DNA from: a virus | Virus genome (UHGV): UHGV-1326493 | Direction: 5' to 3' (one strand) | Length of the DNA stretch: 11,306 nt | Part shown: piece by piece, positions 1,129-6,247 of the stretch | Layout of the letters: each line of letters begins with the position of its first letter | Position numbering within the stretch: the stretch's first letter is position 1 | Position numbers and translations under genes: made by a program | Notes under the pieces: model-generated | Database searches by the model: none | What the model was told of the DNA's origin: nothing | Seen by the model: only the letters and a program-made list of their open reading frames with translations

Positions 1129-1475
1129 CTTTATTTGATTAATAATGCATCACTGCGGCCACGCTGCAGCGATTCCTTGTATCTGGAGCAAATTAAATGA
1201 CAGATATTATAAATAGGAATTGTTATTTAATAATATTTGAAAATGAAAATCATGGACGATAGGAATAAAAGTAGTACTTGTTATTTTTAAGTGACGCATT
1301 AAACGCATAAAGCATATGTCTGTTGATCAAGATTCTTGCTTGTTGTAAAATAATTGTTTTGTTCATGTTGCATAGTTTTAAAGTGAATAGAAGATTATTT
1401 TTCAAAACAATTGCATCTTTGTCTGCAGTCATTCCGTTTTCTTCAATATCTAAATTTTCAAACAGGATGACTAAT

Positions 1476-4208
1476 ATGCCTGATATAACTCCAAATGTTG
1501 TAATTGGGATGCCTTCTCAACTCTTCACTATGGCTCGTTCTTTTAAAGCCGTAGCTAATGGCAAAATTTATATCGGTAAAATTGACACTGACCCTGTAAA
1601 TCCTGAAAACCAGATTCAGGTTTATGTAGAGAATGAAGATGGTTCTCACGTTCCTGTTTCGCAACCAATCGTTATCAATGCTGCTGGATATCCTGTATAT
1701 AACGGACAGATTGCTAAATTCGTTACTGTGAAAGGACACTCTATGGCTGTGTACGATGCTTATGGTACGCAGCAGTTCTATTTTCCGAATGTGCTGAAGT
1801 ATGACCCGGATCAGTTACGGCAGCAATTAGAAGATCCTGATGGTGCTAAAAAATACCCTGAATTACAGATTGCACGATGGCGGGATGATAAAGACGTTCG
1901 CGGGTGGGGGGCGGATGACTCTGGGAATAGAGATTCAACACAGGCTTTTCTTGACGCCGCATCTAGCGCAGGAAATAGTGGTTTGGTTCATGTGCCTTCT
2001 GGTGAGTTTATAGTTGATGCATCGAAAATAGATATTTCACGCTTCTCCGGTGATGGTGTTCTAATCAGTAATGGTGTTCGCATTTCTGTTAATCCGCCGA
2101 TGCAAAGTTTCTCCATTGGACAAAGAAAACTTGCGACCCTGAATTTTGGTGATGATATCAATGCGCCAACTATATATGCGAATGCACAAAATGCATTGCA
2201 GGGAATAGCTTGTGTAAGGCATGAAGGTATTGAGAAGGTTTTTATCACTCAACAGGTTGGAGGTTCTAACTGGGGAACGGACACCCTCACAAGGATCAGT
2301 GAGTGGCACTATACAAGCGATGGTTCGACCCTTTCTGTTGTGACATTTACAGAGCCATTGCCTCTTGGTCACGGTTCAGATCTTTCTGCCACAATAGAGA
2401 ACGGTGAACTATATCTGTTTACAACAACAATTGCTGAGACTGGTTCCTCTCTAGGAGGGAAGGGGTATTCAAAGACAAAATGGAAAGGGGCATCAACATC
2501 TGCTGAAGATATAACTCATTACCGAGTATTTGGTGAGCCGGGTGATAATAATCTGATTAACCTTGCGCAGCGGGCAAGTATTTGTGTATCTAATGATGGG
2601 CGATATGTCATATTAATTGCGACATCAAACGCTGGGACTGGCCGCTTTTTATACGTATATGATCGCAAAGAAGTGGAATCTTCTTCTAACCCAATGAAAG
2701 TTAGACCGATTAATGGTCCTGTTCCACTTGTCCGTGGTAAAGGTCAGTATGGTGCAACGCTTCAGGGTATTACATCAGATAGCAGATATATTTACACAAT
2801 TTGGGGTGGCGTTCCTGCAAGATGCGTAAGGACAGTCCAGATTTATGATATGGGTGGTACGCTAATACGTTCGTTTCCTGTATCACTTGCCGCATCACTT
2901 TATACAGAGACTCAGTTAAATGGTTCTGACTCTAAAATCGGAGTTCCGGTTAGCTTTGAGCCTGAAGGGCTGGCAATAAGAGGTGATGAACTTGTCTGTG
3001 GTGCTATGGATGTATGGAAAAGCGCAGGGGATGTTGTAAGCCATCGTGGTAAAAATTGGGTAAGTACTGTTACTGGTGATAACAAGGGAAATCTTCCGAC
3101 AAACAGGTCTTATTGGTTAAAAACATCGCTTGCAGCGACAAATGGTGAATGGGATTCAGGTGCAACATATAAATCAGGCGATTATACTCGCAGAAATAAG
3201 CATCTGTTTGGAGTAGCAAACCTGTCTGATATTCTTGGCAACCATCCAGTGCATGGCGCAGAATCCGATCCGTATACCGGAACCGCGTATCAATATTATG
3301 CTGGAACTGATATCGCCTTTAACCGTGAGCACGGTTCATTTACTATTGCGATATTTGACGAAGCCATTGGAGAGTATACCAAATCCCTCGAGTTGAATTA
3401 TGGAAATAACCTTAACCTGTTTGATACAGATTACGGCCATGACAATAATTCATGGGTAAGTACGAAAGCAGTATTCGACTCAAACTTTCGAGGTATGCAG
3501 TTCCGTTCTAAAGATGGCAATACTGCGGGTGGTGCTTATATTGATATCCATGCTGCTGATTGTCCATCTGCGGCTGGTGAGTTGATACTTGCCTCTACAG
3601 ATGGAGGTGTCGTCAGACTTAAGCAGGGGAATGTAACAGTATTTTCTGCGACTAAAGATACTACATCGACATGGGCGACGACGACATTAAGGCCAACAAC
3701 TGATAACCAGGTATCACTTGGAAGGTCCGTTAACCGCTTTTCTCAGGTCTACGCAGGGACTGCAACTATAAATACATCTGATGCAACAGAGAAAACGGAA
3801 GTCAGAACTCTTTCCGATAAAGAGCAGGCGGTTGGGTTAGCTCTTGTTGATGAAATTGGTTTTTATCAATGGCTTGATAGTGTAAAAAATAAGGGAGCTG
3901 ATGCCAGACTTCATGCCGGACTTACGGTGCAACGGGCAATGGAAATATTCAGAGAGAATGGACTTGATCCATTTAAATACGGAGCGATCTGCTATGACAG
4001 ATGGGATGCATATACAGATACAGATCCTGCTGTTTATGATGATGAAGGTAACCTTGTTCGTGAGGCTATAACTATTACGCATGAAGCAGGAGAACGCTAT
4101 GCATTCAGAAACGATGAATTACAGTATCTAATGATTGCTGCATTAGGTATACGTCAGAAAAATATTATAAAGAGGATTGAAGAACTGGAAAATAAGTTAA
4201 AAAATTAA
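1476..4208 (+). CDS. tailspike protein: P22-type head-binding N-terminal domain, distinct receptor-binding body, C-terminal intramolecular-chaperone-like domain
   Basis: N-terminus [59 protein letters not shown]...[10 protein letters not shown]...NVLKYDPDQ parallels P22 gp9 (MTDITANVVV...[38 protein letters not shown]...). Start chosen at ATG 1476, with AGGA 8 nt upstream and alignment to gp9 Met1; ATG 1467 is an alternative. The track start at 1323 is a coincidental in-frame extension through AT-rich leader. Stop TAA 4206-4208. Confidence 0.9.
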
Positions 4209-4299
4209 CGGAGTTTAATTAGGTGGTTTGCTGGGAGGGTTGCTTATAATCCTCCACTTTTAATTTGATTGTTAGAATATTATCGCTAATAAAATTACT

Positions 4300-4605
4300 A
4301 TGCATAGTGGTATTTCTATGGACATTACACCAGTTCTTCACGCTCTTTATGCTATAGCTGCACAGACACTGTGTGGCATACTTACCGGGAACTGGGCTTA
4401 CGGGGCGATAGCCGGTTGTGCGTTCTTCATTGCTCGTGAACATACCCAGGCAGAATATCGCTGGATTGAAATGTTCGGGCATGGCAAGCGTATGAATATG
4501 CCGTGGTGGGGAGGGTTTGATCCACGCGTGTGGGATGTGGGAAGTCTGTTGGATTTTTCTTTCCCAATTATCGGATGCTTATTGGTATGGATTCTTGCAT
4601 CGTAG
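4300..4605 (+). CDS. hypothetical small membrane protein (about 95-101 aa, 2-3 predicted hydrophobic helices)
   Basis: ORF reads ...MDITPVLHALYAIAAQTLCGILTGNWAYGAIAGCAFFIAREHTQAEYRWIEMFGHGKRMNMPWWGGFDPRVWDVGSLLDFSFPIIGCLLVWILAS, with hydrophobic stretches at both ends. No convincing SD for ATG 4300 or ATG 4318. A TATAAT hexamer lies at 4245-4250. Sits between the tailspike and sib/attP. Confidence 0.45.
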   Translation: MHSGISMDITPVLHALYAIAAQTLCGILTGNWAYGAIAGCAFFIAREHTQAEYRWIEMFGHGKRMNMPWWGGFDPRVWDVGSLLDFSFPIIGCLLVWILAS

Positions 4606-4703
4606 CGAACACATAATTACCGATGAAACAAAACTGAGGCACACAAAGCTTTGCACTGGATTGCAAGGTTTTGTGCTTCTCTGGAGTGCGACATTTTTTC
4701 ATG

Positions 4704-4747
4704 ACAAAAAATTAGCGCAAGAAGACAATAAATCACCTTGCGCTAAT
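4704..4747 (-). terminator. lambda-type tI terminator within the sib retroregulator region, for the leftward int transcript
   Basis: Minus strand reads GCATTAGCGCAAGGTGATTTATTGTCTTCTTGCGCTAATTTTTTG, i.e. ATTAGCGCAAG...CTTGCGCTAAT stem plus T-run, close to the lambda tI sequence as I recall it. Extended dyad symmetry continues leftward to about 4640. Confidence 0.7.
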
Positions 4748-4750
4748 GCT

Positions 4751-4992
4751 CTGTTACAGGTCACTAATACCATCTAAGTAGTTGATTCATAGTGACTGCA
4801 CATGCTGTGTTTTGCAGTATTATGTAGTCTATTATTTAGACCAAAACCATCATAACACATTGATATTGATGATTTTTCTTGTTTCTCATTCAGCTTTTTT
4901 ATACTAAGTTGGCCTTATAAAAAAGCATTGCTTATCAATTTGTTGCAACGAACAGGTCACTATCAGTCAAAATAAAATCATTATTTGATTTC
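4751..4992. other. attP: complete lambda-type attP (P arm, 15-bp core, P' arm)
   Basis: Core GCTTTTTTATACTAA at 4893-4907 flanked by CA...GTTGG as in lambda attP. Arm-type Int sites are present: P arm CTGTTACAGGTCACTAATAC and TTCATAGTGACTGCA (4751-4800), P' arm ACAGGTCACTATCAGTCAAAATAAAATCATTAT (4952-4984). The P' arm overlaps the 3' end of int, as in lambda. Confidence 0.85.
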
Positions 4993-6051
4993 AATTTTGT
5001 CCCACTCCCTGCCTCTGTCATCACGATACTGTGATGCCATGGTGTCCGACTTATGCCCGAGAAGATGTTGAGCAAATTTATCGCTTATCTGCTTCTCATA
5101 GAGTCTTGCAGACAAACTGCGCAACTCGTGAAAGGTTGGCGGATCCCCTTCGAAGGAAAGACCTGATGCTTTTCGTGCGCGCATAAAATACCTTGATACT
5201 GTGCCGGATGAAAGCGGTTCACGACGAGTAGATGCAATTATGGTTTCTCCGCCAAGAATCTCTTTGCATTTACCAAGTGTTTCCTTCATTGATATCCCGA
5301 GAGCATCAACATGCAATGTTGTAGGGATGGCAATTTTTACGCCTGTTTTGCTTTGCTCGACATAAAGATATCCATCTACGATATCAGACCACTTCATTTC
5401 GCATAAATCACCAACTCTCTGCCCGGTAACAACAGCCAGTTCCATTGCAAGTCTGAGCCAACATGGTGATGATTCTGCTGCTTGATAAATTTTCAGGTAT
5501 TCGTCAGCCGTAAGTCTTGATCTCCTTACCTCTGATTTTGCTGCGCGAGTGGCAGCGACCGGGTTTGTTGTTATATGGCCTTCAGCTATTGCCTCTCGGA
5601 ATGCATCGCTCAGTGTTGATCTGATTAACTTGGCTGACGCCGCCTTGCCCTCGTCTATGTATCCATTGAGCATTGCTGCAATTTCTTTTGTGGTGATGTC
5701 TTCAAGTGGAGCATCAGGCAGACCCCTCCTTATTGCTTTAATTTTGCTCATGTAATTTATGAGTGTCTTCTGCTTGATTCCTCTGTTGGCGAGGATTTTT
5801 TCGTAGCGATCAAGCCATGAATGTAACGTAACAGAATTATCACTGTTGATTCTCGCTGTCAGAGGCTTGTGTTTGTGTCCTGAAAATAACTCAATGTTGG
5901 CCTGTATAGCTTCAGTGATTGCTATCCTCCTGTCTCGGCCTAATCCAAACTCTTTACCCGTCCTTGGGTCCCTGTAGCAGTAATATCCATTGTTTCTTAT
6001 ATAAAGATTAGGGGGTAAATCCCGGTGCTCATGACTTCGCCTTCTTCCCAT
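4981..6051 (-). CDS. int: tyrosine integrase, lambda Int type, 356 aa
   Basis: MGRRRSHEHRDLPPNLYIRNNGYYCYRDPRTGKEFGLGRDRRIAITEAIQANIELF...HELRSLSARLYEKQISDKFAQHLLGHKSDTMASQYRDDRGREWDKIEIK is near-identical to lambda Int as I recall it. R-x-x-R, H-x-x-R, H and the Y in ...MASQYRDD are intact. Overlaps xis by 23 nt. Confidence 0.97.
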   Translation of the reverse strand: MGRRRSHEHRDLPPNLYIRNNGYYCYRDPRTGKEFGLGRDRRIAITEAIQANIELFSGHKHKPLTARINSDNSVTLHSWLDRYEKILANRGIKQKTLINYMSKIKAIRRGLPDAPLEDITTKEIAAMLNGYIDEGKAASAKLIRSTLSDAFREAIAEGHITTNPVAATRAAKSEVRRSRLTADEYLKIYQAAESSPCWLRLAMELAVVTGQRVGDLCEMKWSDIVDGYLYVEQSKTGVKIAIPTTLHVDALGISMKETLGKCKEILGGETIIASTRREPLSSGTVSRYFMRARKASGLSFEGDPPTFHELRSLSARLYEKQISDKFAQHLLGHKSDTMASQYRDDRGREWDKIEIK

Positions 6052-6247
6052 TTTTGATCCTCTTCAAAAGGCTACCTGTTACTGGTCGATTTAAGTCAAC
6101 CTTTACCGCTGATTCGTGGAACAGATACTCTCTTCCATCCTTAACCGGAGGAGGGAATATCCTGCACTCGCGTACCCATCGACGAACTGTTTCAAGGCTT
6201 CTTGGGCGTCGCTGGCGTGCGTTCCACTCCTGAAGTGTCAAGTACAT
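6029..6247 (-). CDS. xis: excisionase, lambda Xis type, 72 aa
   Basis: MYLTLQEWNARQRRPRSLETVRRWVRECRIFPPPVKDGREYLFHESAVKVDLNRP...KKAKS matches lambda Xis. Has the characteristic overlap with the int start. Confidence 0.95.
   Translation of the reverse strand: MYLTLQEWNARQRRPRSLETVRRWVRECRIFPPPVKDGREYLFHESAVKVDLNRPVTGSLLKRIKNGKKAKS

Follow-up and report, generated by a model that had tools for sequence, protein, structure and literature searches.

The DNA analysed here (the window, 11,306 nt of the virus genome UHGV-1326493) carries a lambda-type attachment site in which one segment of the P arm departs from lambda at many positions and everything around it hardly departs at all. The question raised by this locus is whether the departure signals compensatory site changes or altered control of excision, as suggested in the original prediction, or ordinary variation in a functional site. 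Positions 4799-4892 very probably form the spacer that separates P2 from the core in a lambda-type attP that is complete and functional and is carried by a mosaic P22-like phage, with the differences from lambda being standing polymorphism. This reading is carried by the observed anatomy of the site, the family-conserved positions, the unchanged DNA-binding domain of Xis and the presence of the same allele in prophages at attB.

Architecture of the att region and location of the divergence

The window carries P-O-P', an attP and not a prophage junction, and positions are numbered from the centre of the 7-bp overlap (position 0 = 4901). The core (4891-4911; its sequence GCTTTTTTATACTAA begins at 4893) consists of the overlap TTTATAC (4898-4904) flanked by the inverted core-type sites C (4891-4899) and C' (4903-4911), as in lambda-type attP. 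All five arm-type Int sites have the lambda sequence and the lambda spacing, including P1 (4758-4767, -143 to -134, top strand, AGGTCACTAA), which falls inside the "int 1" binding feature annotated in lambda, and P2 (4789-4798, -112 to -103, bottom strand; top ATAGTGACTG, bottom CAGTCACTAT). The remaining three, P'1 (4954-4963), P'2 (4964-4973) and P'3 (4975-4984), lie on the top strand of the P' arm (4933-4984) together with the IHF site H' (4933-4945). IHF recognizes the established consensus WATCAANNNNTTR, which is fitted by H1 (4775-4787, bottom strand AATCAACTACTTA) and by H2 and H' alike. The lambda-type tyrosine integrase gene int (4981-6051, bottom strand, 356 aa) contains the Pfam domains Arm-DNA-bind_1 (PF09003) and Phage_integrase (PF00589), and its product differs from lambda Int at 6 residues (98.3% identical); the excisionase gene xis (6029-6247, bottom strand, 72 aa) contains the Pfam domain Exc (PF07825).

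To the left of P1, a terminator hairpin, which we take to be lambda tI, lies at 4706-4746 on the int-transcript (bottom) strand, with stems at 4712-4721 and 4737-4746 followed by a T-run. It has the lambda sequence save for a 1-nt indel in the loop, where the window has one extra base, and was missed by the terminator scan because of the length of this loop. The hairpin is conserved (pi ~0-0.1 among 86 IMG/VR loci) and forms the left end of the conserved att cassette, the homology to the prophage of E. coli UPEC_U013 beginning at 4702. Within the spacer itself, no terminator or promoter scored above chance in a scan of 4200-5100. Further upstream, the tailspike gene (1323-4208, 961 aa) encodes a P22 head-binding N-terminal domain and an endosialidase-type intramolecular chaperone (Peptidase_S74) at the C-terminus, with a weak End_tail_spike match as well, and matches the UPEC_U013 tailspike in the N-terminal part only (89%).

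Ungapped comparison with lambda (J02459) located the divergence precisely. The spacer (4799-4892, -102 to -9), which at exactly 94 bp separates P2 from the core by the same distance as in lambda, differs at 24 of its 94 positions, 14 of them by transitions, while the flanks show 0/69 differences in 4730-4798 (P1-H1-P2) and 1/88 in 4893-4980 (core and P' arm), and int and xis together show 29/1267. The spacer differs from its flanks with a Fisher p of 2e-16, so that the concentration of differences in this segment is genuine and lies far outside chance expectation. The account of lambda in the original prediction was essentially right: P1, H1, P2, C, O, C', H' and P'1-3 are identical base for base, in agreement with its statement that the ends of the P arm and the core with the P' arm match lambda, and the many differences lie between the arm sites and the core, as described. 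The segment quoted there is divergent indeed, and only its start was misplaced, trivially, the quoted string beginning 2 bp earlier. The sole lambda difference in the core and P' arm is an A to C change at +13 (4914, GGCATTA to GGCCTTA), between C' and H'; this C occurs at 4 of 143 family loci and is shared with phage 434.

Natural variation of the spacer and its integrated copies

Variation of the spacer was surveyed with a pattern of an exact P2, 80-105 nt and an exact core, which retrieved 185 loci (86 IMG/VR contigs, 16 contigs of GTDB genomes and 83 metagenome contigs); the sample is ascertained by this pattern and contains only loci in which P2 and the core match exactly. These 185 lambda-type P arms contain 89 distinct spacers, 85 of which are exactly 94 bp long, with three of 93 bp and one of 96 bp. 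The median pairwise distance is 17 positions, and the median distance to the other spacers is 20 for the window and 23 for lambda. The distance of 24 between window and lambda belongs to the top 6% of pairs, chiefly owing to the peripheral position of lambda itself. A lambda-type P arm is also found in 1026 of 5426 complete E. coli genomes, and for 960 of these 1026 arms the identity to the window across 4740-4925 is just 80-90%.

The reference set for conservation consisted of 75 independent haplotypes from which the window class and the lambda class had been removed. At a threshold of at least 95%, 61 of the 94 spacer positions are conserved and 33 variable, and 17 of the 24 differences between window and lambda belong to the variable set (Fisher p = 4e-5). 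The other seven affect conserved positions, and in four of these cases (-87, -70, -51 and -21) it is lambda that has the rare base and the window that has the consensus. The window has a rare base at three of the 61 conserved positions, two of them in X1 (-100C and -96C) and one immediately to the left of C (-13A), each of which occurs in only 3 of 85 haplotypes. With four off-consensus positions against three, lambda therefore departs from the family at least as often as the window. Compared with the 85 haplotypes, the rare stretches of the window spacer are limited to X1 and -33 to -9. Nearly all family-conserved positions are kept, and the window spacer is therefore ordinary: it is one of many natural alleles in the Xis/Fis/IHF stretch of lambda-type attP.

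The exact lambda attP haplotype itself turned up in the GTDB scan (L095-L109) in unrelated taxa, including Shewanella canadensis, Pseudomonas spp., Chromatium weissei and Oceanobacillus, and further in Kitasatospora, Tardiphaga, Leeuwenhoekiella and several MAGs. Several of the contigs concerned are ~48.4-48.5 kb long and some have low coverage, and the distribution looks like contamination by lambda control DNA rather than natural hosts. A contig of Kitasatospora papulosa (L108) is lambda-derived and has xis fused in frame to int sequence, apparently by deletion; the likely source of the fusion is an engineered lambda vector that contaminated the assembly.

The exact 94-bp allele of the window was found in five contigs (three from IMG/VR, two metagenomic), in all five as attR joined to the E. 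coli B' flank, and also in two or three complete E. coli genomes with 98.8-99.4% identity over the P arm. In E. coli UPEC_U013, the exact spacer lies at one end of a P22-like prophage of 40 kb located between ybhC and ybhB; the other end is a lambda-like attL with lambda-type xis and int. The exact window Int adjoins ybhC in eight further contigs, all of them integrated attL forms. Since the allele lies in attR at the canonical E. coli attB (gal-bio, ybhC-ybhB), integration is documented, and these copies are indirect evidence that the att type of the window recombines with the E. coli attB of the gal-bio interval. Excision by this attP would be implied by the intact attP in the window only, integrated copies being no proof that it is efficient. 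One additional contig (L316, from SRR17000998) encodes the exact window Int with the same downstream genes and breaks off at the att core, 88 bp beyond the stop of int; an assembly interrupted by coexisting attP and attL forms would end in this way, and the contig possibly represents a relative of the source of the window.

These independent copies also bear on the idea that the divergence reflects an att site that is decaying or no longer functional, or else an artefact of sequencing or assembly, which is highly improbable. Nothing specific points in this direction, the feature that could raise the suspicion being a divergence of 25% in 94 bp, extreme next to flanks that are ~98% identical. 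Against it, the identical 94 bp occur independently in the five contigs and the two or three complete E. coli genomes, the exact length is conserved, the IHF and Fis consensus positions and the X2 contact bases are kept, and int and xis are intact. Decay and artefact were both rejected on account of the independent identical copies.

Protein-binding sites of the spacer and the excisionase

The spacer was expected to hold the Xis, Fis and IHF sites, and X1, X1.5, X2, F and H2 could all be placed in it by sequence, the three Xis sites being direct repeats that abut P2. X1 (4801-4813, top strand) reads CATGCTGTGTTTT in the window and TATGTTGTGTTTT in lambda, and the window allele occurs in 3 of 85 haplotypes; it keeps G-97, G-94 and the T-run and has T to C changes at -100 and -96. 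By mapping from the structural work of PMC7145599, G-94 would be the equivalent of the X2 base pair contacted by Xis Glu19, and -96 would be the equivalent of the X2 thymine, which is contacted by Xis Arg23 in one of two rotamers (PMC7145599). X1.5 (4814-4820, top strand) is GCAGTAT, lambda having ACAGTAT, and the window form is found in 14 of 85 haplotypes and the lambda form in 7. X2 (4821-4835, top strand) is TATGTAGTCTATTAT (lambda TATGTAGTCTGTTTT), and its 13-mer TATGTAGTCTATT is the commonest allele of the family (19/85); AGTCT at -75 to -71 is invariant in the family, and the window retains both AGTCT and G-77.

The Fis site F (4827-4841, -74 to -60, top strand) overlaps X2, and its 15-mer GTCTATTATTTAGAC fits GNNYRWWWWWYRNNC, as do 82 of 85 family haplotypes. 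High-affinity Fis sites are characterized by G/C boundaries at +/-7, an AT-rich centre and Y-R steps at +/-3-4 (PMC4784862; PMC7145599); the window has the conserved G-74 and C-60, an A/T centre and Y-R steps at +/-3-4. The reverse complement of lambda F, GCATAAAAAACAGAC, reproduces C3-A4, G5, A6 and C7 of PMC7145599, so that the C7/G7b pair, contacted by Fis Arg85 and Xis Glu19 (PMC7145599), corresponds to -74, a pair that is invariant in the family. The G to A change at -70 yields a T-A step at Fis +3/+4, and in experiments T-A, T-G and C-G steps all keep Fis-Xis cooperativity, whereas non-Y-R steps lose it (PMC7145599). In the centre of F, the T6 A-tract of lambda is interrupted (TTATTT vs TTTTTT), and the window F allele is present in 12 of 85 haplotypes. 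H2 (core at 4853-4865, -36 to -48, bottom strand TATCAATGTGTTA; lambda TATCAATATATTA) retains every consensus position of WATCAANNNNTTR and departs from lambda only at -45 and -43, which are N positions; the H2 core TAACACATTGATATT is the commonest family allele (35/85).

The spacer thus laid out most likely works as in lambda. In excision, Fis bound at F would recruit Xis to X2, from where Xis would spread to X1.5 and X1; Xis at X1 would help the N-terminal domain of Int bind P2, and IHF at H2 would bend the DNA sharply, bringing P2-bound Int to the core. In integration, the H2 bend would likewise be used, and Xis binding would be inhibitory. The 24 differences would lie mostly at bases that the proteins do not read, with Xis and Fis reading mainly the backbone and groove shape and IHF a short consensus. 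By itself, Xis is poorly sequence-specific and contacts mainly the backbone (PMC7145599), so that many spacer sequences are tolerated. Binding and directionality control would then be expected to be quantitatively normal.

The protein side points the same way. Xis is lambda-like, as had been noted, with 70 of 72 residues identical (97.2%), and the two differences, G59S and R65K, both lie in the C-terminal tail. Residues 1-58, which include the crystallised DNA-binding domain 1-55, are identical to lambda, so protein-side compensation is absent; the window Xis also matches the PDB chains of lambda and HK022 Xis. Of 118 Xis genes read in the loci retrieved, 109 match the window at every residue up to position 55; a single substitution, at scattered places within 1-58, is present in eight, and two genes are truncated or fused. 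S59 predominates (92/118), lambda G59 being a minority form (11/118, mostly lambda itself), and the combination of S59 and K65 is found elsewhere only in two loci (L223 and L299) and once more together with V35I (L196). As a single, essentially invariant Xis domain works with dozens of spacers, compensatory change in the protein is ruled out and compensation on the site side is unnecessary. Covariation between Xis and attP was considered and rejected, the DNA-binding domain being essentially invariant beside variant attPs, and so was the notion that K65 tracks the X1 variant, for UPEC_U013 has the identical spacer with R65.

A compensatory site change or altered control, the functional part of the original prediction, is accordingly unsupported, given the unchanged DNA-binding domain of Xis and the 17 of 24 differences at freely variable positions; altered control is further weakened by the near-identical Xis beside dozens of different spacers and by lambda being the odd one at four of the seven differing conserved positions. 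In its most specific form, the idea would be that the rare X1 motif CATGCTG, the interrupted A-tract of F and -13A retune Xis-Fis-Int assembly on attR, with the consequence that more Xis or Fis is needed for excision and the lysogen is stabler, or with the effect offset by R65K in the Xis tail. Such an altered directionality set-point is unlikely, even though -100C, -96C and -13A are so infrequent at positions that are otherwise at least 95% conserved, the base equivalent to -96 in X2 would be the one contactable by Arg23 on the mapping above, and R65K, shared with only three other loci, lies in the Int-interacting tail of Xis. It is the Xis protomer at X1 that brings Int to P2 (PMC7145599), which makes a modestly reduced affinity of X1 conceivable, and the change at -96, at a putatively Arg23-contacted base, could make X1 affinity somewhat lower. 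What stands against this is that C is common at the equivalent X2 positions (-80 and -76), where the 5-mer CATGC is a common allele (9/85, all with the same Xis domain; TATGC 17/85), that UPEC_U013 combines the identical spacer with the common R65 and strict covariation hence does not hold, that the DNA-binding domain of Xis is unchanged, and that lambda works well despite being off the family consensus at four conserved positions. With the spacer most likely functioning as in lambda, -100C, -96C and -13A would be the sole remaining candidates for a modest quantitative effect, and a measurable change of the set-point caused by these rare alleles is improbable.

Allele classes of the spacer and relation to known phages

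The diversity of the spacer is far above that of the rest of the recombination module. Among 14 distinct attPs, it amounts to 13.5% in the spacer and 35.5% at the free positions of the spacer, compared with 4.9% in P1-H1-P2, 1.0% in the core and P' (0.5-1% in the P' arm) and 2.2% at int third-codon positions; among 75 distinct int-xis haplotypes, third-position diversity is 3.2% in int and 4.8% in xis. Diversity falls sharply at the att core (window 4799-6247; loci L008-L307), and the free-site diversity of the spacer is ~10x the synonymous diversity of int. The spacers of HK022 and lambda (36/94 differences, int 72% identical) are not much further apart than those of phages with int ~99% identical. 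Altogether ~16 deep allele classes of spacers can be distinguished.

The class of the window (X1 = CATGCTG; L026, L057, L080, L087, L092, L139, L189 and L094) always adjoins a P22-type tailspike. This tailspike type accompanies 7/7 loci of the window class as well as UPEC_U013 and the window, vs 51/120 lambda-type P arms overall, which suggests that att-arm alleles are linked to the virion modules of the left flank. Four-gamete failures give an Rmin of 5 within the 94 bp, and two other haplotypes have the same left half as the window, the differences from it being confined to the right half; both findings indicate exchange among spacer classes.

Crossing-over promoted by Int at the core belongs to classical lambda genetics. 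On the sequence patterns above, it is plausible that the P arm is older than the int side and has been unlinked from it by such crossing-over. The window spacer would then be an old, cassette-like allelic lineage, with a P-arm genealogy much deeper than that of the P'-int-xis side, possibly owing to the unlinking of the arms, to sweeps or homogenisation of int, or to diversifying selection on the spacer. This account, which is compatible with normal function, has a little less than an even chance of being correct: the drop of diversity at the core, the ~16 deep classes, the constant company of the P22-type tailspike, the Rmin of 5 and the shared half-haplotypes all argue for it, but an excess of mutation or homoplasy at a few free sites could mimic recombination, the sample is restricted to arms with exact P2 and core, and int third positions are an imperfect neutral standard. 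A bolder version, in which the spacer is a hyperdiverse cassette kept by Int-promoted arm reassortment and/or selection on the excision set-point and the rare window class (X1 CATGCTG, interrupted A-tract in F, -13A) represents a functionally distinct setting that demands more Xis or Fis, is unlikely. A literature search for surveys of natural lambda att variation or for the diversity asymmetry returned nothing relevant.

The finding is of small direct importance, its main message being that lambda attP as known from textbooks is a rather untypical member of a large set of alleles and that the Xis/Fis/IHF region tolerates ~20% substitution provided that ~60 of the 94 positions and the exact length are kept. 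The map of variation amounts to a phylogenetic footprint at base resolution, in agreement with the crystallographic contacts (AGTCT of X2, the G/C pairs at Fis +/-7, the Y-R steps and the IHF consensus), and could be of use in designing orthogonal or tuned att sites for recombinational cloning. Should the rare X1 allele or the allele classes vary in how efficiently they excise, they would provide natural cis tuning of prophage stability; the rare X1 allele and the asymmetry between spacer and int diversity are the sole points that might repay experiments.

The alignment that had been proposed as a check matches the spacer neither to lambda nor to the characterised variants 434, HK97 and HK022. 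No identical attP was present in the phage collection, the best match reaching 94.6% over the att region (PhiR11_1*), and no named phage carries the spacer allele of the window, the carriers found being unannotated, uncharacterised prophages. For the window as a whole, complete E. coli genomes and phage records gave mosaic matches of at most 38% coverage and no close relative.

The lambda attP (J02459, about 27,580-27,820) has the same architecture and spacing as the window, comprising P1-H1-P2, the 94-bp spacer with X1, X1.5, X2, F and H2, C-O-C', H' and P'1-3, and is set apart by the 24 spacer substitutions, including the X1 7-mer (TATGTTG vs CATGCTG in the window), by A instead of C at +13 and by one base fewer in the tI loop. 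The attP of phage 434 (OL657226, M60848) likewise combines a lambda-type core and arms with a divergent spacer of the same length and has C at +13 as in the window; it differs from the window at 21 spacer positions, has the consensus X1 and carries one change within C'. The other phages deviate to a similar degree, with 19 spacer differences from the window in HK97, 21 in HK106, 23 in JEP4 and 14 in PhiR11_1*, the nearest phage record. All five, from 434 to PhiR11_1*, have identical arms and differ from both window and lambda in the same segment.

HK022 (attP in AF069308; PDB 1PM6) lies further away. Its arm-type sites, the X1/X2 layout and the core islands of H2 are conserved; the core-type sites, the overlap and ~36-39 spacer positions differ (~39 in comparison with the window), and its int DNA is only 72% identical to lambda int. 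The HK022 Xis is of the S59 form and differs from the window Xis only at residue 65. HK022 has been characterised experimentally (reportedly by Yagil et al. 1989), and its Xis is reportedly interchangeable with lambda Xis. It provides a characterised example in which an almost unchanged Xis acts on a spacer of very different sequence, and the window spacer is an uncharacterised, naturally circulating allele of the known lambda attP system.
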